From NCBI GenBank assembly GCA_965649765.1, contig OZ287752.1:53382001-53446000 (forward strand): a stretch of DNA of 64,000 nt. Reading direction: 5' to 3'. The DNA is from Bispira polyomma (taxonomy: Eukaryota). Every line of letters begins with the position of its first letter. Position 1 is the first letter of the stretch. A model generated the notes under the pieces. That model searched no databases and had not been told where the DNA came from. It saw nothing but the letters and a program-made list of their open reading frames with translations. Position numbers and translations under genes: made by a program. Positions 9,801 through 50,719 of this stretch are shown piece by piece.

Positions 9801-9904
9801 AATGATCACAACTATATAAACTTAGCACATTTGGGCGTTTATTCCTAAATACAATTCCTCAACATTTAATATTGTTAAAACATCAAACTACTAGTTTATC
9901 GACA

Positions 9905-10135
9905 GATTAAGTTTAATTTAAGTTAAGGGCACCCCAACGTGATCTCAGGTGACCGTAAAGATTTTTGCACTAAGGGTGACATAACTTTACTAAGGTCACC
10001 ATAAATTAAATCAAAGTTACTAAACTTTTTGAGATTGAGGGTGACTTAACTTTGCTTAAGGTCACCCTTAAAAAGTGAATTTACTAAATGGAAGGTTACC
10101 TTAAGGGCAGCCGAGTTTAAGGTAAACTTTATTTT
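9905..10135. repeat. Array of TAAGGTNACCTTAA-type imperfect palindromes
   Basis: TAAGGTCACC (about 9991 and 10057), AAGGTTACCTTAAG (about 10092); about 67-bp internal repeat AGGGTGAC(A/T)TAACTTT..TAAGGTCACC. Confidence 0.75.
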
Positions 10136-10590: not shown

Positions 10591-12029
10591 CTAACTGAGC
10601 CCAATTAGTGTGTCCATTGCTTTACTAAGTAGTAAAATCTGTATTATAATACAGGTTATAGTTACTTATCTACCTAAATTAACTAATCTGTGTATTATGA
10701 GCTGTACTTTAATAATGAAGCCACTTACTCTGTTCCTGGCTGGCTAGATGATCCTTTCACTGTCAGTAGTAGTCCTGACTCGTGACCCCTCAAGGTAAAA
10801 AATTTTCCCTCGATGACCTTTTTCTTCTTGCTAGCCATATTTTAGGTACAAATGGCAGTGGAAGGTTCAGTACGAGACAACTTGGGGTTGACTGCTAATT
10901 GGAGGTACTCACTCAATGGTATGTGTATGTGTGTGTGTGTACAAAGGTTCAGCCGGCTGGAGGAAATTATAAATTGTCAAGATGGCTGCCGATACTTTGC
11001 TTTTGAATAAAAGTTGGCAGACAATGTTAAGTGGATGTGGTGCTGACAATGTTAAGTGGATGTGGTGCTGATAAAGTTGTTTTGTAGTAATAATAGGCTG
11101 TGATAAAAGCTGGGTATTTTGACAATGTTAAGGGGATATTGGATGCTAGCAGAATTGGTAAGGGTAAGTTTACCTTATATAAGGTACAGGGATTTAGCAT
11201 TAGTAGTAGTTCAAGAGAAACCCTTAAACTAACTAGAAATATGCCTCTGATATTGCAATGTTTTGTTGTAAAACGTGGATTTTAAGTTTAATATTTAAGT
11301 AATACCTTAAACTGGAGACAACTTTTAAGTATAATAGTACAAATAAATTGACTGAGAAACTAATGTTGAGACAAACTTATGATAGTGGACCTTTATCTCA
11401 CCCACTAATATTGCAAAGTCCAACAAGATACACTTCATAAAGTTATGATTTTTATCAACGCTCCTTGATAGGTGGTGGTGGTGTGTGTGTCTTTTTGCAA
11501 ATAGGCTATAAAATCATTGTACTTGAAAACAATGTGGGCAATTAAAATAATACCTCCACTTCTTATAATTACAATTATAATAGAAAAAAATCTCCATTCA
11601 ATAGAAATAAAATATTTCTTCAGTTTTATTTTACAAGGAGATATATTGTTAGTATTTTTTTTTATTATTAAATCCTGTCCTTTAAGTATCTTACTTAGAC
11701 GACAGTGTAGGTGTAGTATGCAGTGTCTATACTTGTTTGACAAACTTACTGATAAGAGATTTATGAGTGATAGTCTGCTTTTGGGTCCATGTTTGTTACA
11801 ACAGTTACTACTAAACTGCATTCATAAGATAAATATATTTCACTTAATATTAGCTGCAGACATAAATAAGTGTTCTATGGTTTTTGGGTAGTGAAATACT
11901 TGTAACAGTATCAGTGCTCTGACCTAGAGTTTGAATATTTGACCTTGGTTGAACTAGCAGTTGGGATTATATATTTTAATTTGCTACTACACATATAGTT
12001 AACTGGTTAAAATATTAATATCTAACAAT

Positions 12030-12350
12030 GAGGCCACCTTAGTTAAAAATTTAAGTTTAGTGTAAGATCACCTTAAGAGTGACTTAACTTGACTAAATTT
12101 AAGGTTAACGTAAAATCAATTAGAAATTGATTTTTTCTAAAGTTTAAGGTAACCTTAACTAAATTTACTATATTTAACTTGGCCTAAGCTTTACATGTGT
12201 CTAGTTAAGGTTACGACTTAAGTTTAATTAGACTATAAGTTTACAATAATTAAAGGTAACCTTAACAACATTACAAGATTTAAAATGGCCTAAGCCTTAC
12301 ATGTGTCTAGTTAAGGTTACGCAAAGTTTTGACTATAAGTTGGCCTTACT
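12030..12350. repeat. Array of TAAGGTNACCTTAA-type palindromes with a 106-bp direct repeat
   Basis: Perfect TTAAGGTAACCTTAA near 12145; GGCCTAAGC(T/C)TTACATGTGTCTAGTTAAGGTTACG at 12181 and 12287. Confidence 0.8.
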
Positions 12351-12884
12351 AGATAAAATGTGTAAGCTTTATATGATATAAATGATAGAAAGAGATACAA
12401 CAACCACTATACAATAACCACAATAACTACTATAAAACTATAAAAAAAAGTACATAAATACTAGCTTGTTAAAAACTAATAAAATAAAAGGTGCATGCAT
12501 ATAATGTCTTTTAGAGTCCAAGGCACCAGAATCTCACTGAACCTTACGTTGTTGAATAATTCAGCCCTAAACATCGAGTCAGTGTACTGTACGTATATAT
12601 ATATGTATAGTGAGAAGATCTTTTAATTACAATTACAAATTTAAGCACATGGATCTTGGATGCTTGAGGCTTGCTTGGCTGACAGGCTTTCTTGATCATT
12701 TACTTTGCCATGCATTGCGAGGATCTTTGGACTGAAGCTGACACAAATAACTGTTAACACCACATATATAATTGTCATATATCTATATAAGGACAGCTTA
12801 AGTTAAACACAGTTTTGACAACATGATATTAACATACAATTAGAGATGAGGTAAGCCTGGAAATTTCAGTAATTAGTGTGGAGA

Positions 12885-26520: not shown

Positions 26521-27084
26521 CCTTATACACCGTATTACGACCTAATATTGTCCTAGCGGTCAGTCATATGATGATGTCAGCTACATGGAAACATATGGCA
26601 AGGTTTGAATTAAAGTCTACCACATTATTTAAGGGTTTCCAGGTATCCGACACAAACATCCAGCATTGTAAACAAACCAGAACTCCCATATTCTTTGGAT
26701 AAATTATTTGATTTTCAAAAAAAATGATCAGAAAATCACACCCTACAATCTTCTGTCAGGAGTGTTAGTTATTTTCTGTCAGCTAGCAGCAGTCTGTTAC
26801 ATGGTCACATATGCTTATCATACAATCAGCCCCATCATTGCTAAAACACGATTGGAAAAAGGAATAGTGTGATATGAGTTGGGGATGGGGAAAGGGATGA
26901 ATGTCAAAAATTGCTTCACCCCTGCTTTACTGTATACAAAGTATTGTGTAAGTGGGAATTACAGCTGGTAATAAAAAAAACTATCACTTATGTTGAACCC
27001 AGTAGTGATAACATAGTTTTATAGTAATGGTGATATTTCTCTGTACTACATATACTATATAATTTTATCTAATAGTTTTAACAG

Positions 27085-27385
27085 TTAAGGCCACCTTAAC
27101 ATCAACTATTTATGCATTACAGCAAGATAGTAATGCTATTGGTACCTAACCTTAACCTTAAGAAGAAACTATTCTAAATTTAAGGTGACCTTAAAATGGC
27201 CAATCTTAAATCTTCCTATTCCAAAACTTAAATCCTAAGGTTACCTTAACTTACGTTAAGTCAATCTTACCTTCAAATAAAAATTAACCTTAAACTCAGA
27301 TTTAACTTAAGGTAACCCTAAACTGGGGGGGTTAATCCAGTTTAAGTTTCACATTACGTTAAGGTCTTCGTATACGTTAAGTTGG
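27085..27385. repeat. Array of TAAGGTNACCTTAA palindromes
   Basis: Perfect TTTAAGGTGACCTTAAA near 27179, TAAGGTTACCTTAA near 27236, TTAAGGTAACCCTAA near 27307; begins AGGCCACCTTA like the 12030 array. Confidence 0.8.
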
Positions 27386-29079
27386 TTTCAATTATTTTAT
27401 ACATATATACTATATATCTACATTTTACATATTTTTAATGGATTAAATTTAAATGTACTATAATATGTATATAATGGATAGTATTAACACAGAAAAATTA
27501 AAAACTAACTTGCCCAATTTATGTGTTTTATTATGTGTTCACTGCTACATCATCCACTAGCTCACAGTTTAAGAGCCACTGTGCATTTTTAACACCCTTA
27601 TTGATGTGAGGCATCTTTTTCAGAGCAACTCCAGATTTAATTAACAATCAAGAAGTTCATAAACATATCCAGTGCATAATGCATTGAAATTCCAATGGTA
27701 TAAATGTGTACATTGTTGTTATATATTAATGTTTAAGATTACAATATAAAGAATAAGGGTCACACAAATACACATTCCCACACAAACCAAGGTTCTCCAA
27801 ATATTCCACAAGTCTGGTTTAAGTCACAAACCTTATTATCATTATTTCTCCGTGCTAGTGATGAGTAACACTATCGCCAGCCTAATTGACATCAATCATT
27901 TGGTTGTCTATCTAACAATCCAAGATTTGTAACATAGCTGTTTGCTTTTTGGAAATGTCGGCTAGCTTACTACTACCGAAGTTACTATTTGAATCTATAT
28001 TTTAGAAGTCAGCACACAGTAATCAAGTGTGATCATCATTATTACCTCCACCAAGCAACTTATATTTTCACTCATTTTTCAATGTTATGTAAGAAAATAA
28101 ATATCAAAGATTTGCTTATTGAATGTTTATTATTGTTTTCACTGGTTTCTTATTAAGACAATGTTAACTTGGGACATACTTGAATCATATTTACTAAATA
28201 CATTGTTAAAAGATATCTAGGGCACTCAGTGGAGTGCACCTAACCGCCAAGGTGCTAAAACTGCTCCCCCCAAATTTTGGATCTGCCCTTCTTCAAAATT
28301 TAATATATGCGTCTTTGGTCAATATTGCACAACATGACTGAATTAATACAAATCAGTTTAGTAGTTATTATAAAAATTCCAGTGACAAATTAACGAACAC
28401 AGGCAAAACACATATAAGCATAACAAATTAATCATTGATTACATACTGATCAATTTGTATATCAACTATTTATGAAGAGTGTGTTGCTTTTAAAATTAAC
28501 GCCTATTTGCAGACTGTAAATTAGGCACCTTAAATTTCAGTAATTATGTAAAGCTAGCTGTTAATTTCCTCAATTTAATAACACTAATTGAAGCAATTAT
28601 AATGCAGCAACACAATACATGCAGTAAAGGAGGAACATACAATTTTTTTTTTTTAAATTTGAATAAATTTTTTGCTTGAACCAATTTCCTGGCGTGGAAT
28701 AGAATTACATAATTCAATTTTCTGTGCCTAAAAAAATATTATTGCAAAACAAAATTACACCGAAATGCAATATGCTACGTTTTACATGATGTAGACTTTA
28801 TTGTTATAATTATCACATTTTACGGATGCACAGACATCAAGGCCCTTATTTTTGCAAAAAATAAATTAAACAAATTAAATAAATATGGTACGGTTTCAAT
28901 GTCGAAGGACAGAAAATAGGTCGACCACAGTTCCTCGGTGTGTGGGCAGATGATAGTTATTTAACCAACAACTCGCAGTAAGAAAAGATTGCGGTTAAAT
29001 ACTTTATTCTATATATATAATTTCTACTACTAACATATTTTTTATATACAGTTTCTTTGTAGAATGCGTAATACTGTTG

Positions 29080-29389
29080 CGGGCATAAGGTCCCCTTCAC
29101 TCAAGTGAGTTTAAGGCCTAGAGCTTATAGTAAGCTTATGTTTAGGTGACCTTAAGTACAATGAGTTTAAGAGTGTAAGTTTGCCAAAGTTGAGTTTGAG
29201 TCCCAACTTAGAGGATTTGAATTTAAGGTTATGAGTTTAAGTTTGGTAAAAATTTTGATTTAACTGCAAACTTAAGAGATTAAACTTTAAATTTATGCTA
29301 GTCTAAAGTTTGACTTAGGGTTTTAAGTCGAACTTTAGATACTTGAGTACAATATGTACTAATATAATGACGGGGGGGACCTTATGCCC
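29080..29389. repeat. Inverted-repeat-bounded, multi-hairpin structured region downstream of YR
   Basis: GGGCATAAGGTCCCC (29080-29094) / GGGGACCTTATGCCC (29375-29389); nested ACTCAAGT/ACTTGAGT; hairpins at 29220-29293 and 29302-29339. Confidence 0.85.
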
Positions 29390-29465
29390 AAAAAAGGTAT
29401 AATATTTATTGTTATTTTGACAGATCTTAAGCCCAAATATTTAAGTTAGACCACCAAGCCCCAAA

Positions 29466-30449
29466 CTAGTAGGTGTTTTGTAGGACATCTTTAAAGGAAT
29501 CTGCAACTTGAGTACCAGCATCAGCAGAGTCTGAGATGTAATGCCAAATGCAATCCGACGTCCAGGTGCCTTGTTTTTGAATATCCTGAATCTTGACATT
29601 ATTGTTAAACGCAAAGGTGGCACCTGAACGTCGGAAGGCGTGAAAGGTCAAGCCAGAGTATTGACCACCAAGTAGGGATAGTACATTTTTGAGGTGCCTT
29701 CGCACACGTGTCCGTTAGTGGAACCCACAAGCCTTGGAGTTTAAACTGAAATAATGGGAGATTTTTTCCTTTTGGTGAGATGGCTAACACAGCTTTCAAG
29801 GTCTGAACAGGACAAAGAATTGAATTTTGTATACTTGGGATGGTTAGCAATCGAACTGCATCATGTCTCTGCAGTGTCTTAGACCATTTGATCATAATAA
29901 CTGCATACCCTGGCTTAAAGAAAACATCAGCTCTAGCTATTTTCCAAAGAGGAGAGTATGACCCCATTGAATGATGACACAGATTGGATAAACGCAGAAA
30001 TGTAAAAAAACTTGTCAAATAAACAGCCTTGAAAATTTGGCCCATGTAAGTACTATCACATTTACTAATCAGAGCCCTAAGCAAGTGCACATCAAAAATT
30101 TACTTCAACTTCACCTGTAAGGGTCTATGCATAGCCAAGGCTTTAGTGAAATAAGAAATTCTCTGGTCAGAAAATACTTGAACATCTATATGAAACATAA
30201 CACATTTTGCCTTCACAGCCGAGATGTGATTTACTACCTGAGTGGCCGAAACACCATTGAAATTTAGAAACTCTAAATATGCTAAAATTTGCAACACAGT
30301 CACCTTGTGGGGAGGCCACGACATCAAGGCTCCAAAAGCTAGGAACTGTCGAAACATTCTGTCATATGCTTTATTAGTGGCTGGAGTGAGAGCTGAGTTC
30401 AGCCTATCACAAGCCTGTCTCATCAGAGCCAGACTCACAGGGTGAGTGC
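29466..30449 (-). pseudogene. Tyrosine recombinase of the Ngaro-like element (stop at 30100-30102, frameshift near 29700)
   Basis: FFTFLRLSNL (catalytic R), KWSKT, FHAFRRSGAT (HxxR), GTWTSDCIWHY (W and catalytic Y). Confidence 0.92.
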
Positions 30450-30473
30450 CTGAAAAAGAAAAACTAAAACCTG

Positions 30474-32972
30474 CTATATGAGAGTGTTCACATGAAGCAA
30501 ATTTTCAGGGGCAGGAAGCCATTGAATTGGTTCAGCCAGTTGGTTTACTAATAGGTGGTTACTTCCTGTCTCGGCCCATCTGCAAAGTAAGTCAGCCACT
30601 TTATTTTCTAGAATATGGACTACAACAATTTCAATGTCAAACTTACTGGCTAACATGTATATGTTTCTAGTATAGGTGGCCAATATGGGGTCTCTGGTAC
30701 GTCCTGTCTGTAAGACACTGACTACTGCCTGATTGTCACATCTTACTAAAATTCTCTGACACTTCCATTTTTGGACCCATAGCTTCATTGCTACCAAAAT
30801 GTTCAACATTTCAAGAGAAGCTATATTATACTCTGTCATACTTATAGGAACTATAATTTGGTATACTTGGTTCCCATAAATCCCCCCCATGCCTGTGAGG
30901 CAGGCATCCAGTTGTATCTCGCCTGATATGGGTTTATGTAAGAAAAAGGAAACACCATTGAACTGCTCTGCAAAAGTTCTAAACCAATTTAAGTCACGTC
31001 TGAATGCATCACTTATTACAATTTTATTTTTACTATGATTATCTCGTAGCAGTTCCAACATTCTATTCAAGAAAACCCGAGCATATTTAATACATTTAGA
31101 GATATATAGCAAAAGGCCCAGTAAGGACTGTAGTTCTCTTTTGGTACAATAATTTTTTGAAGCCCAATCCCTGCACTTGCTCTGAATTTCTGCCATTTTT
31201 TCAGACGGGATAGAAGTTGTGCATTTGACTGTGTGGATTATTATGCCTAGGCAGACTACCTCAGTGCTGGGTGGAACCAATTTTTTATGGCTAACTGTAA
31301 GACCCAGTTCAGCAAGCAATTCTTGCAATCTTATGAACGTTTTCTGAATTTTGCTGGGAAGTGATACACATAAAAAATCGTCGATATAATTGTGGACATT
31401 ATGATATTCTGAGTGCATTATGAAACACACTGCATCCGAAATTCATTGGAAAATAGTACTGCCATTCAAATAACCGAACGGCAGCGATTTATTGACATAG
31501 TAGGATTTCCACTTCAACCCTAAGAGGTCAATGTCGCCAGGGTCGATGGGGACGTGGCGAAACGCCCTACTCATGTCTATTTTAAATATCTGACAACCCT
31601 TTCCCAATTTAGACACTTCAGTAGTAAGATGATCAATAGAAGGGTAAGACAGTAAAAATTCGACACCCAGATACAAAGTCGGAGAATCACCTGCATTTAC
31701 TGAAGCCCCCTGAGGCCAACTCAAATCCACAATCACATGTCTGTTAAGCGAGTTGGGTTTGTGTCTGGTCATTAAAGGGGAACAATGCAAATTCCGAATT
31801 GGTGGAGTGTCGAAAGGACCAAGCATTGCCCCAAAGTCACATTCTTCCTTCATATAGGCATCTACATGTTGAGGAAATTCCTCTGCCGACTTATGGTTAG
31901 TTTCATTCGACTCGGTATGAATTTTTTGACACACATCAAGAGGGAATCCGTATTTTATAAGGAGAGGCAGTTGCCAATCCCAGTAGGTTTGTAAATACTT
32001 CCCCCACGTTTCTGTTTTTAATTGAGAATAGACAGGAATCTGGAGGCCAGTATAATTATGCCTGCCATCAAGACGTAGTTTCTCATGCATTTGTAATATG
32101 GATAGTTCGTGCCCTCCCCCACCATGGTCGGCAATCTCACTGTCCAAAGCCGAGAGAGGAATAAATCCATAAGCATGACTACTCTGGTCCTGCCATTTTT
32201 TGTGTGTTTGATTCGAGGCCCCCTTCTGCAGCAACTCCCTTTTATTTTTCTTGTGCTTTAAAGCAAATACTTATCAGAGGTTTCAACATTTTCATTAACA
32301 CGTTCTGTGCAAGTACTTGTCTCTTGGTGCTTTGCAAAGCCCCCATTGTTACCCAGCGTGCTACTAGAGCGAACGACTCTCACAATGGCTGCATTGTCCT
32401 CCACAGGTATTTGTGCCAACGCGGAAAACTGATTCTTAAGCTGAAAGCCACATTTAGCTTCATTGATGCGGCTCTTTTCGACCCCCCTCTGAATCGATAT
32501 TCTAACACCTTTTGTCTCCATGCCCAGTTGCTTTGTGCATGGGGGTCGCTTCACAATAGGTGTCACCTTCTTAGCCACTTGAATGGAGGTGCCAATTACA
32601 GGTGTTAACTTTTCAAACCTTTGAATAGATGTGGCAGCAGAGGTGTCAACATTATTCTTGAGTTCAGCTCTGCCAACCTTTTGTGGTTGGCAAAACCTGC
32701 CCTTTTGTGTCACCTTTCCAGAGCTAAACCTGTCAACCTTTTCTGTATGTCCCGTATTATATACAAACATTGATTTTTCTGGTACTAGTACTTTTTAAAG
32801 CCTCACTATAGCTAACATTCGGCCTTTTGACCTTCATATATTTACACATTTTCTGATACACATTTTTTTCAAACAAATGAAAATCTTTGAAGCCTGTGCC
32901 ATAGACAGTTCTATTTACGACCTCAAAATTTGCAACCTTTTTGTCCACTGCATCCAAGCAGTGGCCCCTCAG
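30474..32972 (-). pseudogene. pol: reverse transcriptase + RNase H (nonsense TGA at 31443-31445; frameshifts in the N-terminal part)
   Basis: ORFs 32757-32957, 32258-32770, 31443-32234 and 30474-31430. The last two share a frame (STIFQ*ISDAVCFIM). RT YIDD and RNase H D-E-D-D motifs are present. Confidence 0.92.
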
Positions 32973-32978
32973 TTTTTT
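32945..32978 (-). promoter_or_regulatory. Putative -1 programmed ribosomal frameshift signal (A AAA AAC + 7-nt spacer + hairpin)
   Basis: Minus strand GCA AAA AAC TGA GGGG CCACTGC TTGGAT GCAGTGG; the -1 frame is open into pol. Confidence 0.7.
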
Positions 32979-33957
32979 GCCTCTTTTTTGCTACACATAC
33001 TGGTCTTATGACTACCCCCACAAGTTCCTTCTTGAAAGAACCTGCAAGGTGTTGACTTTTCTAACTAGTTTTACTACTGCCAGTGCTACCAGCACGGCCA
33101 TTCGGCCCATGAAAAGATCTTGACACACCTACATGGCGTTGGGCGTGTGCCCTGCGGATCCGGTCGACCTTCTCAACATTCAACCACCCGAGCTTGTCCA
33201 TTTCCATATTTGTTAGGACTATCGCGTGACAGGCCTTCGCCGCCTCCCACAAAAAATCTTGGGCGTTCTCCATGAGGCCACTCATGTAATTTAGCATAGC
33301 GTTCTTAATTTCAGTCGACTTCTCCTCGTGAGCGATCCGGGTGAAGCCACAAACCCATTGGACAAGGGTTAAGTCGTCATAACTAGGGCGAGTCTTCGAA
33401 CTGCCGGTCAGCACATAATTCTGGGGCCATTCGACAGTCTTTTTTACAATAACCTTGTTCCCCCCAGTTCTCTGAGACTTAATTTTACCTGCGGGAGTTT
33501 CATTAAGAGACCGGAGGTTTTTTAACCTCTGTTCGACTTGCAACTGAATCTGAGCTTTCTGACTCAAAAATTCAACACTCGGAACGACAGTATCTGGGCC
33601 AGTAGATGGGCTTTTACCTTCATCAGCAGAGACTAGATCTTTAGAAACACTAGGAGTGATACTAGAAGTAACGGTACTACTTGCCTTACTACTGGTGAGG
33701 TTGGCTGCCAACGCTGCCTCTGTCTGCTGGACTCGCTGATCCATCCTCTCGACTACCTGGCTGAGAGATTGCAACTGCTGTTGTATAGCGCTAGATACAG
33801 CCTCGTTCGGATGAACCAGCGAGTCCTCATGGGAGCCAGCATCAACTTCCACTCCCTCACCCGAGACATCAGACATATTAACCGAACAGTTTCTTCCAAC
33901 AGGTCTCTCATGTTTTTGCAAACACTTTGAACAAAACACAATCTTTTTACCTGGCAT
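32969..33957 (-). pseudogene. gag-like ORF1 of the Ngaro-like element
   Basis: 298-aa ORF with N-terminal CxxC..H..C, coiled coil and conserved WPQNYV..YDDLTLVQWVCG..WE.AK.CHA.VL..ME..KL.W core; the Cys/His C-terminus (PCRFFQEGTC..H..C..KN*) lies in another frame after about 33060. Confidence 0.85.
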
Positions 33958-34104
33958 GACTTGAGTGTATATTGAATTAAAATACTAAAACCAAATAAAC
34001 AGTATAAAACATAAAACACTCTTTGTCACCCAAACAGTATTTGAATTTTCCTAGTGCTTCTGCTGACGAACGGTAAAAGGCGGAAAAATTTGAAAGGGGG
34101 ATGG

Positions 34105-34112
34105 CTTATATA
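34105..34112 (-). promoter_or_regulatory. TATA box of the retroelement promoter
   Basis: TATATAAG about 150 nt upstream of the gag ATG. Confidence 0.5.
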
Positions 34113-35899
34113 CTCGCCCATCCATCTCATAGTAGTGAACAGCCTGGTACCCCAGAACTGAGGCCGCTAACGCTAGGGGCGTTAGCTTTCACAATAACAT
34201 CCAACCCAAAAGCATAAAACATGAGTTACAGTGGGTAATAACAATAAATCATATGTGAGCAAATATGAAAGTAAACATATACATAACTTATTTTGGATAA
34301 TGGAGTTCAGCCGTATTAAAACATATTCATGAGAATGCAGGGGCTTAGCTAGTGAAGAAGCCAGTATGCCTAGGCATACCATTTTAATGACCGAAAAAAA
34401 ACATAATAAAAAAACATTAAATGACATAATTAGGTTTTCCCTATAGTTTTGATACAGGACATGGTCTTCTATTTGATGAACCTGCTATTTTATCTGAAAA
34501 AATTTTGCTCTTACAACAGATATAGATTGTAGAAGATTTTTGTAAATGTATTTAAGATAACGACAATTAAGAAGGGTTACAAGCTGAGGTCATTTGAGCT
34601 GGTTGTGATGTGTTGTGTTATAATGTGTTGTGTACATAATTATTAAGAATTACAATACCGGAATCATGTACTGGTTGAATATCATACAGCGTACTACTAG
34701 ACACTGTGGTATAGTTGATAACACATTTAGGAATGGGCCTGGGCCCGTATTTACTAACATACTTAGCCAAGTATTAGGCTTAAATCTAGTGTGCTTGGGT
34801 TCAGGGCTACCCAGGGTTCCCAGATTAGGACATATATAATGTCTTGACTACATACTTTAATAGCGATATTCTGTCATTTGGGTCATGTGACTATACCAAG
34901 TCACAAATGACAAAACATTGGCGATGTTTAAAAGTAGTGTTATTTCCTTTTTTTTTTAATTAGAGTGAATGGCATTTAGACTGGTACTACACTGGCGCAG
35001 TCATAAAACAGGATATATTCAAAGCACAAAACCAATATACTTGGTATGTTGTCATTAAACTTAAGGTGACAAGGCTGCTCGTGGTATAAGTTTGATACAT
35101 TTGCAATTAACTAATTCGTGAAAGGTTTGTGTTAGCATCAGTATGGATGCATCAGCTTGGCAAATGTAGTAGGCAGGCAAAATGGACGGTTCTCAAAAAT
35201 GATGATAATATGTGGTTACTTTTTCTCATCAGATTCCAATGCAGTGTGGCTAACAAATCTGTATTAATTTCCGGTGGTTTATTCTGTAATAAAGTTTGTC
35301 CAGATCCAATGCCATTCATTTAATTACAGAAATTACTATCAGTAAGATCTCATTGTGGGCGTTTTATTACATTCTTGCAGAATAACCAAATTGTTTGTGG
35401 ACTATCTTAACGAGATGCTTTAGCTTCTATTAGACAACTCTTTCTACTTCTCATTAAAAGGAAATGAGGGTTTAAGTGACCAATAATTGAATTTATTTGC
35501 AGATCTAATAATTAATTACTAGGGTGAGGGGTAGGGGTGATGGTCCATGTTCGAGTATCACCAGAGACAGTATAAAACATTTTGTAAATATAACCTTTTG
35601 ATTCAAATGTTCTCTGATTATTGCATCGTTGTATTTTTAGATTTAAACAGCTCTTATGGCTTCCCTAAAAGCTATTTCTGCAAATTGTTAGTAAGTATCA
35701 ATTCTCTTAACTAATTAGTTTAAGAATAAGAATCGTCAACTAAAAACTAATATAAACTGAAACGTTTTCTGTTGTTCAAATTCAGGCAATGCAAAAAAAT
35801 GCAAAAAAAAAAAAGATGTTTAAGTACAAAATTGTATCTACTAGTTTATGTAATCTAATTATGTTTACAATGACACTTTGTTTTAAACCTTAGTTACAA

Positions 35900-37092: not shown

Positions 37093-39588
37093 TCTATTAC
37101 AGAACAGCACTCAGTAAAGTGCAAAAAATGCCACAGTGGCACAAAATTGATACAAATATACTCTTTGATCTGTCCTTCAACCAAGATCTGGTCCCGTATA
37201 CCTGATAACATGCAATTCGGTTCAAGCCTCCTTGAGTGAGATAATTATTACTGACCAACTGTTGGTTAAATTAATGTAACCTTTTTATTAGTGGGCTGCA
37301 TTATATGGTGGTGCCTTGTTTATTTAAGTGTTTTCAGAAGTTTGAAAAACAGCATAACCTAATGAGGGATGTATCATTAATAAGTTATTTTTAACATGTA
37401 TTTACATGACTTTAATACAGTCTATATTGGAAATAAATACATCAAAAGAAAGAATACATTTAAGGGTAACACAGGATAACAAATTGTTTTTTTTTTAAGG
37501 AAATTGCTTATTTTACAAAAAATCTTAAAAGAAACAAAATAAGGCTACACCAAAGAACACTCCAGTACAAAGTATGTCATCTGATATGAGGATTTCCAGC
37601 CTGTCTGTCAAATTACTGTACTGAGGCAATAAATCAGAATTTCGGATTTCTTGCAGCCTCCTTGGTGTACAATAACAAGTTTAGCCTTTCCAAAGTTCAG
37701 TTCTCAAATTTAGTTTATTCATTACCCATAGCCTATAAAAATGCAAAGGTATTGTTTTCACCTGGGTAATCAGGATGGACATCTACATGGGGCTAGGTTT
37801 TTTAACCTGCAGAAATTCATATGGGGTACAAGCATTCCCTCCCAGGTCATCTGTGTTCCAAAGAGAGAGTATTACCCACAATCCGACGGTGGCAGATAGC
37901 TAACACAAACCTGCTCCAATGGTTATAATTATTGTATTATTGCCTGGTAAAAAACAGATTCTCTCCTTCTACTTTAACAACACTTGCTACAAAAAAACTC
38001 AACACACACAGCTTAAGTACATCCGACAAAGAGAGCACAAATACTACAATCAGTGGTGCCATCTAAATTAAAGTGTATTTCTGGCACCAGAGTCATTTAT
38101 GATGGATTTTATGTGTCAATTATGATACTGTCTCTTGCTTTTGCTGAAAATGCCACCATTATGGGGAATTTTTATGCCAGCAACAAAATGTTAGTCGCTT
38201 ATCTCAAATTAAAATTTTACTAATGAAGGTGGTCTTCCCATTACCTACTAAGGATACAAAATATTTTTCATAACTTCATTCTCTCCTTTAGTTTGCTGCA
38301 ATAGCATGTATATGTAGGGCACAGTGTAGGCTTGCAGCAACACCACATGGATACAATACAAACCCATGTTTTATATAATATAACCCCCATATAGTAAACA
38401 TTAACACATAGCCCTTATAAAAAGTAAAAACTTATGATAAATATAAATATACAGGTAGATACTTTATTAATAGATATGGAAATCATGGACTTGATATCGA
38501 GTCGGCGTTAAGCTAAAGCTTTTTTTAAGAACAAGACCACAGTTTCCTGAACAGCGACCTTTCTGTGGTAGATACAACACTCATACCAAACAGTGAAGTT
38601 AGTATATGTTGAACATTTATATTCTGGCAGATATTTTTATATTTTGCCTGCTACATTTACCATTTTTTCTAAATACCTTCCTCATAGATATGGTTTGGGT
38701 AATGGTATTTGCTTTTCTCCATCAGGGACACTTATCAGAATTAAAAAAAATCATCTTTCACAAGCAATAAACAAAGATCCAGTAAAACATAGTTCAATTT
38801 CTGTGTTAGTATCTATATTGAGGTCAAAACCTCCGGCACCATTAGATCCATGATGGATCACATGTCTAGATAACTTAAAATATATATAATTATAGTTAAC
38901 AGAGTACCTTCCATCTTGTTAATAGCAATAGTGGCTCAGTTGGCTAATATTTAAAGTCACAGATCATATAGAAATTTGATGATTATCTAAATATATTTGG
39001 CTGATCTACGTTGAAACAGAAAACTAGATTGTTTGGTTTTCATAAATTAAAAAAATGTTTATTTATATTACAGCATATCTGCCATAGAAATATGTTTGAA
39101 AGAGAAATCAAACCCACCACCGTAACATCTCAAGGAAATTAAATATTAACCAAGGCAGTAACAGTGATTTATCCACTTTTGGGGGGATATGTCACATACA
39201 TATATCAATAACATTGTCTCAATAAAATAACTGTGAGCTGGTAAAATCATACACTGCTGTTAAACTCTGGCACAAGGCTATTTCCTGATTAGAAGCTATT
39301 TTTTCCCCAATATTATCAGCTTCAAATGGCAAATGTTCAATAGATCAGCTTCTTTCCCTGCTCACTAAACAGGCTTGTCACATACAAAACTATCCATCTT
39401 GGCCACTTAACAAGTACCTTTCTCCTTCCTCTCTCTAAAAAAATAAAGTTCATTTTTTTTAGTACCAAAATTGCTAAACAGAAAATACCCGCTGAATTTA
39501 ATATTAGTAGGACTGTCACCTACGAAGCATTAAAAAATGGATATACTTATTGATTTTGTGTTAAGGAGGTGAGATATGTCAAGCCTTG

Positions 39589-39663
39589 TTTATAAGTGTA
39601 AATTTAGAACTGTCTTTTTGACGTCACTTGGTATGGTTTTATCTCAGCAATGACGTCACCAAT
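39589..39663 (-). promoter_or_regulatory. CCAAT-CRE-CRE-TATA promoter module
   Basis: TGACGTCA at 39619-39626 and 39651-39658, CCAAT at 39659-39663, minus-strand TATAAA at about 39589-39594; paralogous modules near 46240-46310 and 53965-54031. Confidence 0.55.
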
Positions 39664-40639
39664 AAGGGCTGTCATGCAAATTTTGTAGTATTTTTAATAT
39701 CTTCCTGGGTGTGCGTGAACGGGGTATTAAAATCTTATATCTTGCTAAATTACCTCTCAAATACAGCGAAGTAAGAGACATTAATCCAATACAAGAGGCC
39801 TTAATGTGAAATCTATGCCACAAAATTGGCAAAAATACTATTGTCTTTTTACTAGCTCTTTAAACAGATTTAAAAATGTGAAGCAGAAAGTTTTCCAAAC
39901 TAAATTTGATATTCACAAGTTAAGGGATTTTTAACATTATATATAAGATCTATTATCCAAACACATTTGCAGACTGGTATTTTGTTCAGATAAACTAATG
40001 ATAGAAGTGAAAGTTTAGTATCTCTTCCAAACATAATGGACCATAGACTTTAGTGTAGCTCAGGCGTGTAGTCCTACCTTCAGTCGACTTCCCAAGCTGC
40101 TTCCATCATTCCCTTTACGTTCTCCTTGATTGTCCCTTCCTCTCTTTAGTTGGTTTCAGTCTTAATTTTAAATCTTATATTTTATAACATTTAAAAATAG
40201 CTTTTATCTGTAAATATCCACTAACATGTACAGAATAAAACTGCAAACTGTATCTTTTATTCTTTACTTACATCCCCATATCACTACCATTCAACCATTG
40301 AGAACTGTTACAACTATGACAACTTCAGGGGGCCTGCGGTCTCAATTCCTACCCATCTGATTACCTCCTTATTCTTATTGCTCTCTTCTGTTCATCCCTA
40401 ATTACCTATGGGCCATTCAGTATTTTAGACACCACAGTAAGGAGCTCCTGAATCCCCTTACACAGTCACCATTTTAGACCCAAAAGTTCACCCACCACCC
40501 TCCCCTCCACCAAGAATAATGTTTTTCTTGGTGACATTATTGTTCATCGCATTTCCAATTGGGGCCACCATACTACTCATTTACATTCATAATATGAATT
40601 TTAAAAATTTCACTTTACCTCCTTTCTTGTGTGATTCAG

Positions 40640-40755
40640 GTGTGGGACTGTGTGGGCCACCCGCCAAGGGCCTCCATGGTCGAACAGGAGCCTCTGAGAG
40701 GCCGGATCCCCAACCCCTCTGCTGGGCAATTAGGTGCCTCAGGTCCCGTGCCCTT
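40640..40755 (+). pseudogene. Decayed collagen-like Gly-X-Y exon fragment
   Basis: Polypyrimidine tract and CAG acceptor at 40610-40639, then GLC GPP AK GLH GRT GAS ERP DP / GQL GAS GPV. Confidence 0.45.
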
Positions 40756-43700
40756 AATCCTCACACTAAAAAATCATATGGATTCTTTAATACTACTTCT
40801 ATTAACCTTGAGGTTTATTGATACCACGTAGTATTAGTAATAATGTATTTTTGACACAAGTCACTAAAGTTTGCCTAATATATGAGACGGCTCCCCAAAT
40901 TACTTTTTGTTGTTTCGTTTTTATTGTTATTTTCCCCCCATCTCCTAGGATATTTTGTGAGGGGAATTTATCTATTAGATTCTGACTCATTCATCACAAG
41001 GAATAATTGCTTACAAAGTTGAATGGCAGTGAGTAATACCTTACCTTCAAAACAATGTAGCTGACACTTAGTTAACGAGTGTGCTTAGTAGAGCACAAAC
41101 CGCGGTCTTGGGGTAAAATTCGAAATGTCTCTGCTTTAACTACAAGACTGGACCTTTGAACGTCAGCCATCAATGACAGTACATGAAATACTTATTTGAC
41201 CAAATCACCCATTTAGTAGCAGTTTTGGGGGTACAAAGTAAATGATTATTAAAGTACTCATCTTTTCTCAACTTTTCTCTGTATTATTATATCAGCTTTA
41301 TCTAGAGTTGCATCAAACTTTAGTGATTTGTTGCTTTGTGGCATGCTCTTGTCCTCAAACAAATTTCATTAGTTTTTGTTTAATCAAACCAAATCAAACA
41401 GGGACATAAATATAACCTTACTGGCTTTGGTAATATGCAACATTCGGATATTTTACAATAAAAAAGTATATCAATAAATCACCTCTCCTGATTTCGTGCC
41501 GCCTCCAGGGTGTACAATGACAAAGTAAACCAGCTAATTCAACAGTCCTTATGATGAAACTATAAAAAAATTTCTCAATAAACATGACATTTAACCCAAG
41601 TTAGGAGACCAAATAAAACAGACTTTTACAGAAAGGCCGAGAATCTATTGTGGGTCATTTTTTACCCATTCACAAGTTACACCACTTTCAAATTACATCT
41701 GTTTATACGCCATCAGCATCTATAGTTATTTAGCGTGATATCACAAACCGATACTGGTTCTAAACAAAGCACATATAAGTTTCCCCATATGAGGTAAGAA
41801 TGGAGATACATTAATTCAGACTGCATTTTTGAATTTAAACTACATGTTTAACACCTATCTCTTCAACCTTAGTCCCATTAATTCTCTCACTGTACACCTT
41901 GGCTATGTTTATTTACTTCTTAATTGGTTAATTGATTCTGTTGTGGCACTTTAGAAGTGGGTATTAAAAATGAAAAATACAATACAATACAGTGCTGAAG
42001 GCTCTACTGAAAGGGATAGTTTATTCCATACACAGAAACTACACATATTTCCTTCATGCGACTTGAGTCTGAATGTCAGTTTGTATTTCTTTGGATAATA
42101 CAGACCTTGGGAACTCATGAAGAAAAACTGGTGTTGATAGATTCATTTAGTCAAGTACATTGCAGTGATAGTAACAGAGAAATCAGATTGCCCTAATACA
42201 GTTTGATAAGGCAGTGGCACTTACTAAGACAAAAAGATCAAATAATATAGAATGTTTGCATGTGTTCTTCATAAATTAAGGCTTTACTGGTTTTAGCCAC
42301 CCCAGAGTCAAAATGATTTAATGGCCTTTCCTATATTTTTCTGTTGATGTAGATAAAGATAATCTATGCAATACATATTATGTGTCAGTCTATTAAAAAA
42401 ACTAGTTTTAGCAGCACTTTTTACAAAATTTTACACACAGCTTATTACATACACCAAAGAGAGCAAAAATATTACAATCAGTTGTGCCATCTAAATTGAG
42501 GCCGCTTTTTCTGGCACCAGTGTCATTTATGGTAGATCTTATCTATAAATTCTGATCATTTTTAAAGCTTTTACTGAAATTGCCACTGTTACAGGGAATT
42601 TTCATTGAAACAACAATTGTTGGTCACTAATCTTAAACTAAAACATAAACTTTGGCAATATCCTTACCTAGAAAGCATAATGAGCTTTTTGTTTACTTTT
42701 TGTGGTGAAATGAGGGTGCTCTGTCCAGTACCTACTGAGAATACTAAAAAATTTTTTCTTTACTTTCTGCGCTTTGTAATTTTTAGTAGTTACAGTTTTA
42801 AATGTAAGCCTCAAGACTTTGCCTCTCATAATTTGTTGCATTAACATGATTATGTAGGGACTAGTGTATGTTTTCAGCAATACCTCATGAATCAATATAA
42901 ACCCATGTTCTATATAATATGACCTCCATATAGCTACCAGACATTAACCATAGCCAGTCAACATTAATTCATAGTCCTTGTAAAAAGTAAAAATTAAAAA
43001 ATTCGGACTAAATATACAGTCACACACATTTTTTTAGAGATAAGGAAATCATAGACTTGACATTGAGTCAAAGTTGATATTTTTATATCCTGCCTATTAC
43101 ATTTACCGTCAATCTAAAAACTCTCCTCATAGGTATGGTTTGTGTAATGGTATTTGCTTTTCTCCCTCAATGACTCAAAATAAAAAAAAAATCATTTTTC
43201 GCAAGCAATAAACAAAGATCCAGGAAAACGTAGTTCAATCTTTGTGTTATGATCTATAATGAGATCAAAACTTCTGGCACCATTACATCCATTATGGATC
43301 AGATGTCTGGATGAAACCAAACTCTGAAGTTAGTATATTTTACACATTTGTGTTCTGGCAGATATTTTTTATATGATGCCTATTACATTAACCATTTCTT
43401 ACAAATACCCTCCTCATAGATATGTTTTATGTAATGGTATTTTTTTCCCTTTCAATAACATTTACCAGAGAGAAATAATCTTATACAAGCAATAAACAAG
43501 GATCCAGAAACATAGTTCAAACTCAGTGTTAGTATCGATAATAGGTCAAAACTTCTGGCACCAGAACATCCATTATAGATAATATGTCTGGATGACTTAA
43601 CATATATATAATTATAGTCAACAGAGTACATTTTACAATAGTGACTCAACTGGGTAATGTTGAAAGTTCAGATAGAAATTTGATGAGTGTATATTTTTGT

Positions 43701-43889
43701 CTAATCTACATAAAAACTAAAACCTAGACAGTCTGAAGTCCTTAAATTTAAAAAATACGTTTATTGATACGCCAGAGCTAGTAAAGGCAACTGAAGCATG
43801 GCCTTAATATTATTAAACAATAAATGAAATATAACCAAATAAAAATAAAATAAAACATAAAAGACTGTCCATTGCTCAATAATCACCAT

Positions 43890-45000
43890 CAATTTTTTTT
43901 GCGATGGAGGCACAATAGCAATACTTACTCTTTGGAACTTTTTCAGTTTAACACATGGCATGTGATACCAGTCCAGGCAGGAATCGCAGCCTATGGACTC
44001 TTCTCTGCATTTGCCACATTTTCAGTCTCGGTCCTTAATCTCCTTGATTGCAATTAGAGCTCCCCCAGCTATCACAGTAAAAAAATCTCCTCAGCATATT
44101 TACTTTGCTGTCTTCGGGCTGGCTAGGTACATTCTCTCTCTCAATTGCCTTCTCTCCTATTAGGTGATTCTTGTACTGTCTTGTTAACTCCAAACAGTAA
44201 ACAATTTGCATAGTCTAGTTTTGATATCACCAAGCCTTGAATGAGACAGGAACATGACTCTTCAGATAGATATTTGCGAATCCTTGCCATTTTATAAATT
44301 TCCAACTGGCAGGCCTTACATTTTTTAGGATAAACCATAATCTCCATATTTAATAAAGAGTAAAAATAGGCAGTCAGGTTGTGGACAGAGTTTGTTCAAG
44401 GAATTGAGCATCACCCACTTAGAAATAGATGGTTTTTGTTCCATATGGTGTCTAGATCCAAAAATAATAACTTCTGTCTTGCCATCATTCAGCATAAGTA
44501 AATTTCCCAACATCCATTTTTTAATGTTCTCAATGCATTGCAGAGTTTCCTCCATTGAATTGAGGTCAAAGTTAACATAAAGCTGAGAGTCATCCTCATA
44601 GAGCATATGACTCACACCATGTTTGTCTGCAATGTCTGCCACAATGTCTGTCATGTTAAACACGAAGTAAAGTAGATTTGGTAGAGTGAAAAGGTCTATT
44701 AGCCGTCTGCATTTTACTCTATAGGTTATTCTGATCTAAATGGGTTCTAAGACGATTTGCAACAACTTTTTCAATCACCTTTGATAGGAATGGCAAGTTT
44801 GAGACAGGTCTGTAATTTTTCATGATTTCTTTATCCAAATTCTCTTTTTTTAGCAACGGTGTAATATCAGCATGTTTTAGATTTGTTCGAAATGTTCCCT
44901 CTTCCAAAGATTTGTTTGACAATTCTAACAATCGCAGGAGCCTAAATGTCTATATTTTCCTTGGTTAACTTTGTTGGAAAAGGATCTTGAAATGCAGAAG
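43890..45000 (-). mobile_element. L2-clade LINE RT fragment, internally deleted
   Basis: PLLKKENLD..NYRPVSNLPFLSKVIEKVV, HMLYEDDSQLY, WMLGNLLMLNDGKTE, IRKYLS..LIQGLVISKLDYAN. Confidence 0.92.
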
Positions 45001-48000
45001 CATTGGAACATGTAGCGATTATCTTCTGTCCGAATCCACAGCCAGCATGACCTCTACGTCCTTCACTGCATCTTGGTCAAGTCTTCTGATTCTAGGATGG
45101 TGGGGGAAGACTTCCTGAGTAATTTCATGGCTGTGCTCATTGCCCCAAGTCTTTCGTTCTTGCTGATTTCCATCCTTTTGCTGTTCTAATTGAAGGAAAA
45201 AAGGACACTCTATCTTTAATATGGTTGTCTAGTTGTCTGTTTCTCACCTTTAGCCCCCCTGTTCCTATACTCACCTCCTTGGTGACAGTCATATTTGACA
45301 TTATTGTACTTCAAGACTTCAGTACATTCTTAATCAACTTCTTCTGAGCTGCCTCTATACTTCTACTATCTCTGACTACCAGAACACAGAAATGAAGAGT
45401 CTGATACTTCTTATAGCAGAGTCCAATTCCTCAAAGGAATCAAACCCAGAGAAAAAAATAGTAATCATAGATGCCATCTTATCAATCTGTGCAGAATAAT
45501 TCTTGAAAAGAGCAGATTTAGCAATATTCAATTGATCAATGTATCACAATGTGTAAACACAAGTAAATAATGACTAACCCACAGATGTGGGGGTTTATAT
45601 AGAGAGTAATGACTTATAATTGTAATCAGGCTAAACTCACTAAGATGACAAGGTGTGACATACAGTAATCGTTCCTAATTCTCGTTCTATGCAAGGTGAA
45701 GTCTCAGTCAGTATGTTATTTATATTAAGGCCTAACTTTCAGAGGCATATATTTTAAAGAGGACTCAAACCACCTCCACAAAATACCAGGGATTTCAATA
45801 CAAGCCATGGCAGTGATTTAACCACTTTTAGGGGGTTCCGTGACATAAATATGTTTATGCTACTGTCTCAATAAAATAAATGTGAGCTGGTAAAAACATA
45901 CAATGCTGTAAAAAATCTGGAACAGGAGTATTTCCTGATTAGAAGCATTTTTTTCCGCAAAATTATCAACTTGAAATGGCAAATGATCAATAGATCACCC
46001 TGTTCCCCTGCTCACTGAACAGGTTTGTCACATACAGAACTATCCATCTTGGCCACCTAATAAATATTTCTCTACTTGCTCTCTCTAGAAATATAGTTAT
46101 AGTTTTTTCTTCTTTTATTGCCTAAATTGCTAAACAGAAAATACCCGCTGAATTTAATATAAGTAAGACCTACAAAGCATTGAAAAAAGGATATATCTAT
46201 TTATTTTGTGTTAAAGGAGTGACATATGTCATTTCTGGTTTATAAGTGTGAATTTAGAACTGTCTTTTTGACGTCACTTAGTATGTTTTTATCTTAACAA
46301 TGATGTCACCAGTAAGGGCTGTTGTGCAAATTTTGGAGTATTTTTATTATTATGTGTTCCCGGGTGTACGTGAACAGGGTATTAAAATCTTATATCTTGC
46401 TAAATTACCTCTCACTGAAGTAAGCGATAAAAATCAAATACAAGAGAACTGAATGTGAAATCTATGCTACAAAAATGCTATTGTCTTTTTACTAGCCCCT
46501 TGAAAGAGAGTAAACAATGGAGAAAAAGGAGAAAGTTTCCCAAAATAAATTTGAGTTAAGGGATTCTGAACATTATACATAAAAACTAATAATCAAAGAC
46601 TTTTGTAGACTGGTGTTCTGTTTAGATAAAAGATTGACAGAAGTGAAAGTTTCGTTCAACGTATCTCTTTAAAACATAGTGGCCCACAGACTTTGGCGTA
46701 GCTCAGCCGTGTGGTCCTACCTTCAGTCCACTTCACAATCTGCTTCCATCAACCCCCCTACGTTCTCCTCAACTGTCCCTTCTCTTTAGTTGGGTTCGGG
46801 CTTATCTTTAAATCTTATATTTTATAACATTTTAATATACCTTTTACCTGTAAACCTGTATATATACCCTAACATGTTAAGATTAAAAACGCAAATTGTA
46901 TCTTTTATTCCTTACTTACCTCCCCATATTACTAGCATTAAACCATTGGGAACTGTTACTAGCATGACCACTCTAGCGGGCCTGCTGCTTCAGCTCCTAC
47001 CCACCTTATTATCTCCCAATAAGAACTATTCTTGTTTCTCTCTTCTGTCCATCCCTAGTTAGCTATGTGACACTCAGTAATTATGACCACCATTAAGTAG
47101 CTTCTGTATCCCATTAAACAGTCACCATTTTAGATCCTTTGCATTAATAACAATGTTACAAGAATATATACATGTTACAATATGGGAATACAAAAAACAT
47201 ACAGCAGTGTATCAGTAGAACTGTTCACGTTAATAGCAAGGTTACAAAAAAAGTACATGGTCCAGCGTGTTACGATATGAGAATACAAAAAGCATACAAA
47301 TAGTGTATCAGTTTAACTTTACTTCAGAATAAGTAAAACCTGCTGTTCTATAGAACTAAAATAAATAGTGTGCATATCCAAGTTTTATAAATTCCACTGT
47401 CCTTTGCAATCATATTTTTGCAGTCATAAAATTGTCATTCTAGTCCTATTAATTTACTTCGTTCTACACTGTCTTTCAGTATTTTAAGTTGCAACAATGA
47501 TTAGTGTTATAAGTCATTACGTTAACTTGTTTTGCTTGATACATCTACTGTTCTTATGTCTGCTTTCTGTGGGCTTTATTTACCACCTTTTATGGGCTTA
47601 TCTTCAAAGCTTATATTTTATACCATTCTAATATACCTTTTACATGTAAACCTGTTTATATCCACTAACATGTACAGAATAAAACCACAAACTGTTTATA
47701 TTATTCCTTACTTACCTTCCCATATTACTTACAGCATTAGCATTAGCATTTAATCATTGAGAACTATAGTTAAAATAGAATATTATGAATTTAGGAAAGT
47801 GAAAAAATTTTAAAAGTCTTAAAATACTCACCCTGATTACAATATCTGTGTAAGAAACCAATAATGTATTAGATCCTTGCAGTTTTAGATAATATACGAG
47901 AGAGCTGCCCAAATCACTTTTGGTTGTTTTGTTTTTATTGTCAACATTTTCCCCCATCTCTAAAGATAGCTTGTAAGGGGAATTTATCTAATGAATTCTG

Positions 48001-49189
48001 ACACAAGGGAATAATTACTTACAAAGTTGAATGGTAGTGGGTAATACCTTACTTTCAAAACAATGTAGCTGACACTGGTTCATGATTGTGCTCATTAGAG
48101 CACAAACCCCTGTCATGCAGTAAAAATAGAAAGGGTCTGTGCTTTTACTACTTATTTGACTAAATCACCCATTTAGAAGCAGGTTTTGGGGATACAAGGT
48201 AAATGATCTTTAAAGTACTCAGTAAGTACTTTGTATTATTTTATCAGCTTCATCCAAAGTTGCATCAAACTTTAATGATTTGTTGTTTTGTGAAATACTC
48301 TAGCCCTCGAACAAATTTGAGTAGTTTTTGTGCTATCAAACCAAATCAAACAGGGGCATAAACATAACCTAACTGGCTTTGGTAATGATAAAACGTAATA
48401 TGTAACATTTAGTAAGAAGCCCAATAAGTTTGCCACCATGGATTTTCAGTGACATGTGTTTACAATCATAGTTTTATTAAATGAGCAGTATACTGTAATT
48501 TAAAATGTGTACTAATAAGTGTTTTTACTTATGTTGTATACGACATAATTAAAGCTCTTTGAGTATGAACCAATACTTGACCTATACAATAATTTTTTAC
48601 CTCAATAAGCATTGGTAATCCGTATTTCTGGGATGTTCAATTTAAGACTTTTCTTAACATGCTACACTTAGACACTCAATCTCATACTGAATATATATAT
48701 ATGACTATAACCTACACTCATGATCATTTATTTGAATATAGTTGTCAATGCTGAATTCACATTTGCATTCAGAGTTTACTTAACTTTACTTCTGAAAGAG
48801 ATATGGGAACTTTGGTAGGAAGATACCTTTAGGAAACTGCTGCATCAGTCCACAACACTTTAATTGTACTTAACCTTAAACTTTATTTTGGCTAATTCAC
48901 TTTGATATGTACTTTCTGTTGGTCTTAGGGCTTAAAATTTACTAAAAATTTAACCATGATTTTACAAATTGTTTATCTGTACATAGTACTAATATGTATA
49001 TAAAATAAAAGCTCAAACTGAATCTTCTTACTGACTTACAAAACCTTTTAGACTGATCTTTATACCTCTATAACTTAAGTGGACTGTCTGTCTATACTCT
49101 CTATATCCAATGAGATGGCTAGCCTCCGTCTTAAGTTCCCGCTATGTCAAGTTTCCATATTGCATTTCGATTTTAAAGCCACCTCACAA

Positions 49190-49372
49190 ACACACACAGA
49201 TTTTACTTTTTACATTTTCTTTTTTTTTACATGGACATGTTATACAAGTTTTTATTATAGAGCGGTTTTAGGAGAATGTTGATCATTTTGAAGCAACAAC
49301 ACACACACAGATTTTACTTTTTACATTTTCTTTTTTTTTACATGGACATGTTATACAAGTTTTTATTATAGA
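49190..49372. repeat. Near-exact about 70-bp direct duplication
   Basis: ACACACACAGATTTTACTTTTTACATTTTC..GTTTTTATTATAGA occurs twice. Confidence 0.9.
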
Positions 49373-50504: not shown

Positions 50505-50700
50505 TTTTTCCCATAGTCTGTATAGGCTATAGGCATACTTTTATGGGCGTTATCTGGCTGGGCGTCCGGGCAGGTGGTAACTTCCAAAGTTTGTCCGGGT
50601 TGGTTCTTGGAACCCAAGTTCATATTTGGTACAAATATTCATTATAGGCAATACGTTTGACGTTTTGTGGCCCGATTTTACCCAAAAGGCAATAGGTTTT
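50505..50700 (+). mobile_element. Helentron-associated (HINE/DINE-like) non-autonomous repeat
   Basis: TTTTTCCCATAG..CTATAGG hairpin, GGCTGGGCGTCCGGGC microsatellite, TTTGTCCGGG..AAGTTCATATTTGGTACA. Confidence 0.5.
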
Positions 50701-50719
50701 TGGCATCTCTGATCGTATT

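Follow-up and report, generated by a model that had tools for sequence, protein, structure and literature searches.

The question raised by this locus is what a compact array of palindromes and nested stems is doing downstream of a tyrosine recombinase (YR) gene, and whether it belongs to the element that encodes the recombinase. The array occupies 29081-29389 of the window, by which we mean the whole 64-kb stretch of DNA that was analysed, and it is given here without strand. An earlier note had listed its stems, hairpins, repeats and palindrome from the letters alone, and all of them lie where they had been placed. The arms of the closing stem, on the plus strand, are at 29081-29095 (the side facing the B|A junction described below) and 29375-29389 (the YR side). 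Between them are a nested pairing of ACTCAAGT at 29099 with ACTTGAGT at 29341, a long hairpin at 29220-29293, a family-specific 16-bp hairpin with one G.T pair at 29302-29339 (plus strand), and the small pairings AGCTTA/TAAGCT (29122/29131) and AAGTTG/CAACTT (29187/29204). The GGTGACC palindrome starting at 29145 is the unstranded GGTNACC core (29145-29151) of a TAAGGT-N-ACCTTA dyad. A second unstranded palindrome, AGTACA-NNN-TGTACT, lies at 29346-29360, and a polar motif, GAGTTTAAG, has three copies on the plus strand (29107, 29163 and 29233; 29107-29241 overall), all on the antisense strand of the element. The expectation that this segment folds unusually well was borne out on both strands against 100 dinucleotide shuffles, none of which equalled it in any comparison: the plus strand gave -112.1 kcal/mol (z -8.2) as RNA and z -8.4 as DNA, and the minus strand -87.8 (z -8.6) and z -7.7. 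Across the 64-kb window the minimum GC-corrected energy of the plus strand falls in the 200 nt at 29201. Rfam 15 covariance models run against 27500-35500 gave no match at E up to 1.

A search of the genome with the fold gave 303 candidates, from which 40 copies of 93-100% identity were scored. The match continued through a 527-bp block, the B repeat, in 30 of 30 fetched loci, and the suggestion of a cis-element is upheld: the fold belongs to the YR element, is conserved, and travels with B in every one of these copies. Its parts are kept to different degrees. Among the 30 aligned copies both arms of the outer stem are exact in 24, the 16-bp hairpin in 21 and AGTACA/TGTACT in 29; both arms of the AATTTAAGGTT pair are exact in only three and those of AAGTTG/CAACTT in two, as is the AGCTTA pair, whose right arm was tested one base longer. 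As quoted, these three small pairings are mostly private to the window copy.

The 310-nt fold forms the conserved core of one split direct repeat, B, in a Ngaro retrotransposon that lies on the minus strand. The copy in the window spans 34191 to 28928 and, in the direction of the element, begins with the A1 repeat (34037-34191), which has a TATA-like box near 34107 that may act as promoter. There follow a gag-like ORF (33061-33984; a weak CCCH zinc-finger match was found in another copy), the RT/RNase H gene (30474-32794, interrupted here), the YR gene (29466-30504, in three broken frames here) and the B repeat (28928-29454), all on the minus strand. B is single in this copy and present as B1 and B2 in complete copies, and comparison of flanks places its true end at GGAACTG. 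The fold lies 77 nt past the YR stop and about 150 nt short of the crossover point. An AATAAA on the minus strand at 29003-29008, about 80 nt before the B end, is the predicted polyadenylation signal; in 17 of 18 loci a polyA-like hexamer precedes the end of B by 62-100 nt, and since this conserved hexamer is downstream of the fold, a 3' UTR location is predicted for the latter. At 33021-33026, between gag and the RT frame, the window copy is short of about 55 nt present in many others.

The arrangement had been said to fit neither Ngaro nor DIRS1 elements. This does not hold for Ngaro, as the fold sits within B of an ordinary split-direct-repeat element, and the lack of A2-X-B2 in the window copy explains why no repeats had been seen there. 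Ngaro elements are defined, in the available parts of the sources, by an A1-ORFs-B1-A2-B2 order with split direct repeats and by the lack of a methyltransferase (MT) domain (PMC4157794, PMC8547959, PMC9210276). Here gag, RT/RH and YR are present, with RVT_1 (E 1.7e-12) and RVT_3 (E 3.6e-6) above the Pfam cut-off and a weak Phage_integrase match (E 0.002). The RT/RNase H and YR genes share one orientation, and in complete copies the internal repeats are downstream of YR. No methyltransferase match was obtained in five proteins or eight frames of the window, and such a domain would have no room between the RH and YR frames, which overlap. A DIRS1-like identity was rejected, the repeats being direct rather than inverted terminal repeats (ITRs) with an internal complementary region (ICR), and no MT domain being found. 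The element itself is an ordinary Ngaro.

Twenty loci of 10 kb (L031-L050) included three complete A1-ORFs-B1-A2-X-B2 copies and one that ends just past A2, 13 with the ORFs and one B but no A2-X-B2, two solo A-X-B forms (L035 and L036) and one nearly solo B; B1/B2 pairs were found in 18 further loci. Solo A-B derivatives are another likeness to Ngaro, being described for Cafeteria in the part of the literature available. The collapsed forms are compatible with either homologous recombination between repeats or resolution by the YR at two junctions. Differences from Ngaro as described in the literature covered are the long B (390-700 nt) with its conserved, structured dyad array, the covarying junction hairpin and the unique A2-B2 spacer, 946 nt in the window family. 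In one complete copy (L031:1680-2625) this spacer has about five short tandem repeats near 2210-2300 and contains no ORF of more than 70 aa and no SGNH hydrolase ORF; its length differs widely among families. Comparison of 15 left and 29 right flanks revealed no duplicated word shared as a target-site duplication (TSD) and merely a base preference, and none of the 15 left ends was a permuted A2-X-B2-A1-ORFs-B1 integrant. Two DNA contig sets from one sample cover 30 of 30 bins of a B2-X-A2-B1 stretch, evidence only that this family is found elsewhere than in this assembly; among the sequencing runs listed as carrying it, none was of RNA. This genome is very rich in YR retroelements, with 18248 first-look candidates from an RT/RH query and 13140 from a YR query.

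Comparison of families proved informative about which features of the fold are kept. From 76 folds we obtained 25 diverged families with folds of 176-415 nt, six of 40 loci having been left out for want of a detectable left arm. These families share a plan made up of a closing stem of 15-18 bp, the AGTACA-NNN-TGTACT palindrome, TAAGGT-N-ACCTTA dyads and the GAGTTTAAG motif on one strand. AGTACA-NNN-TGTACT is invariant apart from its free 3-nt spacer and lies 23-29 nt from the YR-side end in 25/25 families; the centre of TAAGGT-N-ACCTTA is likewise free (A 12, C 28, G 30 and T 28% in 83 instances). The polar motif AGTTTAAG has 31 instances on one strand, spread over 20 of 25 families, against two on the opposite strand; one family (L100) holds a 24-bp perfect stem of its own. 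A pattern of the two outer arms occurs at 169 places in the genome and one of the palindrome with one arm at 555 (control 0 for each), and exact dyads number 7312 genome-wide against 90 for the control.

In 60 loci picked by RT or YR similarity, blind to the fold, both closing-stem arms were present in 20 of the 21 YR-anchored loci with YR identity of at least 62%, beginning about 80-125 nt after YR. The pair was seen in none of 39 loci with a more distant YR, most of which have dyads. The closing stem is limited to one YR clade (13 of 13 own rows, support 99) in a quick tree that contains no named reference elements and from which eight of 35 own loci were left out for short alignments. GGTNACC is more widely spread: across 57 loci 148 instances fall in the 800 nt after YR, eight inside YR and ten further out, and 46 of the 57, including distant families that lack the closing stem, have two or more downstream of YR.

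Whether selection has acted on pairing or on sequence is a separate matter, and the evidence for the array is mixed. The covariation called for in the earlier note was found in part of the closing stem; close copies were uninformative, with no compensatory pair in 110 among 30 copies that are too similar to one another. The first ten positions of the closing stem are nearly invariant in sequence. At positions 13-18, which are those not fixed by the search patterns, 76% of cells are Watson-Crick against 67% in shuffles and ten cells change on both sides against 3.3 expected, values that none of 2000 shuffles reached; 24% of the cells are not Watson-Crick, and as the families are related the compensations amount to some four to five independent events. 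No covariation was detected flanking AGTACA-NNN-TGTACT, where 284 to 1086 of 2000 shuffles scored as high. The interiors beat shuffles of 14-nt blocks (eight per family and strand) in 23/25 families on the antisense strand (median z -2.4) and in 25/25 on the sense strand (-2.0). Variants shared among copies are rarer in paired columns (26/1168 vs 115/2239), and between sister families 131 of 774 paired columns have changed against 352 of 1314 others. Double changes between sister families number 17 against 9.3 expected, eight of them Watson-Crick compensations (p about 0.01-0.04) and nine not Watson-Crick, and the one-sided changes comprise 41 non-wobble breaks, 10 A.C and 25 G.T. The inner helices are therefore weakly held, interior pairs having been broken about as often as kept. 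No multibranch topology is common across families, and the detailed branching drawn for the window copy is not conserved. In seven of 25 families the centre of the dyad has a mismatch or a wobble pair. Palindromes can also be co-corrected by template switching without selection.

The bias of wobble changes gives some indication of which strand might fold. One-sided changes read on the antisense strand comprise 25 G.T and 10 A.C when families are compared; within families, shared variants give 7:2, and singletons, which serve as a neutral control, give 37:32. Pooled wobble substitutions favour the antisense strand by 32:12 (p about 0.02 on a composition-based expectation), and mismatches inside helices have no strand bias (9 G.T to 7 A.C). 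Only the fold has an excess of G over C (+0.27; flanking B, YR and A have 0.00-0.07), for which the polar motif alone could account. The antisense interior is the more stable in all 25 families, an outcome that G/T richness alone favours, and the core of the polar motif has a pairing probability of 0.61-0.69 on that strand and 0.36-0.38 on the sense strand (42 instances). As far as can be judged from such patterns, the folding strand leans towards the antisense.

At its B|A junction the element carries another single-strand fold, and here covariation is clear. The crossover was located in 18 loci by comparing the ends of B1 and B2. The last bases of B and about the first 37 of A form a hairpin with a stem of 6-7 bp, a bubble of 5x5 nt and an inner stem of 8 bp, and the crossover is at the edge between stem and bubble. 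An example is L031:2729-2796, with 17 other B1|A2 junctions. In the window its left half is the GGAACTG box at the 3' end of B (28928-28934), and the bubble, inner hairpin and CAGTTC box are in the 5' end of A (34155-34191), all on the minus strand. In an alignment of 14 junctions, four near-duplicates among the 18 having been left out, nine of 15 pairs change on both sides, in 27 cells against 9.5 (0/500 shuffles); pairing is 85%, slid controls reach at most 46%, and the bubble is Watson-Crick in 19 of 70 cells. Read on the sense strand, wobbles are 19 G.T to 1 A.C, or 9:1 if the outermost pair is disregarded, and the hairpin is more stable on that strand in 16 of 18 loci. The inner stem has a recurrent internal mismatch and no fixed bulged base. 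In left insertion flanks the four adjoining bases mimic the B end (A 11/15, C 7/15, T 13/15, G 8/15), and right flanks show only a weak preference for T (15/29). The 310-nt fold is itself not the crossover site: the crossover is about 150 nt away, and the junction box differs from the array dyad. A model of the YR from another copy (mean pLDDT 82.7) is similar to Cre (Z 19.1, rmsd 3.8, 275 aligned) and to IntI4 (Z 15.7, rmsd 4.0, 247 aligned); it aligns to Cre over residues 27-345 and has no extra folded arm-binding domain. This predicted Cre-like fold neither supports nor excludes an attC-like reaction.

Starting from the observed position, conservation and partial covariation of the array, we infer the strand, the reader and the step as follows, and hold the result tentatively, at close to an even chance. 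The array may consist of protein-read dyads that are displayed on a folded single strand during the copying cycle, most likely on first-strand cDNA. Transcription would begin at A and end at the polyA signal close to the end of B, which would place the fold wholly within the 3' UTR of the RNA and in its cDNA copy. Once single-stranded, the closing stem would delimit a domain in which the dyads could pair interchangeably, each pairing rebuilding a duplex copy of the same site. A protein, either the element's Gag or RT or a host factor, would load on this fold, most probably on the antisense first-strand cDNA, and might protect it or start second-strand synthesis; alternatively its loading could serve packaging of the RNA or B1-B2 strand transfer. 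A separate hairpin, at the B|A junction, would then form on the sense strand and be cut by the YR where stem and bubble meet. In Dictyostelium DIRS-1, according to the portion of the source available, linear single-stranded antisense cDNA accumulates, its primer being unknown (PMC7192593), and by analogy such a strand is plausible for the Ngaro array. A 3' hairpin was once proposed as primer in DIRS-1, again as given in the accessible parts of the sources (PMC7192593, PMC3266345).

The dyads could also be thought of as double-stranded sites. On this explanation the array would bind a dimeric protein of host or element, as an enhancer- or U3-like region or an accessory recombination region, and its folding would be a by-product of palindromes polished by template switching. 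We consider this quite possible, if on balance doubtful. The free centre of TAAGGT-N-ACCTTA and the free 3-nt spacer of the otherwise invariant second dyad are what would be expected of it, as are the wide range of array length (176 to 415 nt), the 7312 exact genome dyads (90 in the control) and the concentration of GGTNACC downstream of YR even in distant families without the closing stem. At the B|A junction, too, B immediately precedes A with its TATA-like box, and both dyads bear what we take to be a resemblance to nuclear-receptor elements. Double-stranded binding, however, leaves unexplained by itself the covarying stem that brackets the array, folding beyond that of 14-nt-block shuffles, the 24-bp perfect stem of L100 and a third motif kept strictly to one strand. 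The array is unlikely to be read by the YR, whose model has no extra folded domain for arm binding and whose crossover box is unlike the dyad.

A signal acting in the sense RNA only, for packaging, dimerisation or B1-B2 strand transfer and read by a CCCH Gag or by RT, would suit a fold upstream of a conserved polyA-like hexamer (17/18 loci), sense folding as significant as antisense, a polar motif whose core is mostly unpaired on the sense strand, and the weak CCCH match in Gag. We judge it improbable, since wobble substitutions favour the antisense strand (32:12) and the antisense interior is stabler in 25/25 families, though G/T richness alone would favour the latter. Less probable again, indeed very improbable, is that a foldback element (MITE) was captured once in an ancestral B, or that the array is neutral debris of RT slippage. 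TIR-like ends, a variable interior and a closing stem restricted to one YR clade might have been left by either, and the earlier note had named an independent foldback insertion with TSDs as the finding that would undo its proposal. No free-standing copy was found, 18 of 19 folds without a YR keep B-type flanks, and 12 family flank pairs contain no TSD. The dyad array is in addition present in families outside the closing-stem clade, and ends that are near-invariant over YR divergence to about 62% imply selection.

Integron attC sites, in the part of the literature available, act as folded single strands that have a G.T skew, leave a spacer unpaired and recombine by one strand exchange (PMC5027507). 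Their analogue here is the B|A junction and not the 310-nt fold. The junction geometry resembles attC in having a conserved outer box, an unpaired central spacer, a variable inner stem and a G.T skew on one strand. No extrahelical bases of the kind that direct the integrase could be defined at the junction, and the YR model is nearer to Cre than to IntI4. By this analogy single-strand recombination is a putative property of the junction, and the insertion-flank data are only compatible with a single strand exchange there. The standard model for DIRS elements, as presented in the accessible sections of two papers, involves a double-stranded circle and 3-bp identity (PMC7192593, PMC3266345). DIRS-1 is likewise a YR retroelement; so far as those sections describe it, it lacks TSDs, has ITRs with an ICR and forms a circle whose 3-bp junction is identical to the target. 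Here, in contrast, the element ends in direct repeats, and its flanks mimic the B end only in part and on one side. It is conceivable, though in our view unlikely, that the element has a single-stranded DNA life cycle with two folds on opposite strands, in which the B array on first-strand cDNA would be an origin or loading site for the second strand, and the B|A junction on the sense strand an attC-like substrate for one YR strand exchange into targets partly mimicking the B end. If true, an animal retrotransposon would be carrying out an integron-style reaction that needs no double-stranded circle. Single-strand origins of rolling-circle plasmids, retroviral Psi/DIS and LTR U3 arrays are also orientation-dependent, structured or multi-site cis-elements of 150-400 nt, with roles in replication, packaging or transcription. 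These are offered as analogies only, there being no sequence or Rfam match.

In other organisms we obtained 43 metagenome loci with YR identity of 24-42%, 31 of which were examined. None of the 26 with at least 300 nt downstream has three or more GGTNACC (23 have none), no usable B|A junction was found among the loci examined, and viral contigs yielded no relative and no motif. In a quick tree the metagenome loci fall outside the clade that holds all families of this genome, so that host-specific and clade-specific readings are inseparable. The available portions of PMC9210276 and PMC3783388 do not mention a palindrome, hairpin or secondary structure, and no description of the array or of the junction hairpin was met in the open-access literature searched. 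The priming of synthesis and the recognition site of the recombinase are open in YR retrotransposons, according to the part of the paper available (PMC7192593). Dozens of diverged Ngaro families in this one genome keep two cis-elements, namely the dyad array with its bracketing stem and the covarying hairpin located exactly where crossover occurs. The dyad occurs some 7300 times in the genome, and if a host factor reads it these elements would have spread a regulatory site genome-wide.

The fold is not the only such array in the window, and those near 9.9, 12, 27 and 51.4 kb had been supposed to be related to it. This was correct: judged by sequence similarity they are relics of the B repeats of other families, the arrays at 12 and 51.4 kb matching B regions of families that have a YR. 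The first of these two (11940-12761, minus strand) is a B repeat with adjoining non-coding DNA of another YR family, of L107 type (78-86% identity, E to 4e-126), and the second (51001-51377, plus strand) a YR end with the B repeat of the L093/L099 family. The GGTNACC arrays at 9866-10135 and 27040-27400, neither assigned a strand, have relatives beside YR genes at three of nine and two of nine loci, respectively. Among other features of the window, a 441-aa stop-free frame on the plus strand (59037-60362) has no Pfam match at E 0.01. A separate hairpin-rich stretch at 34700-34900, about 500 nt past the end of A, is possibly the relic of a small DNA transposon. The region 37500-55000 contains a degenerate tandem duplication whose repeated blocks are 75-87% identical and spaced about 4.4-14 kb apart; it perhaps represents a multi-copy host gene.
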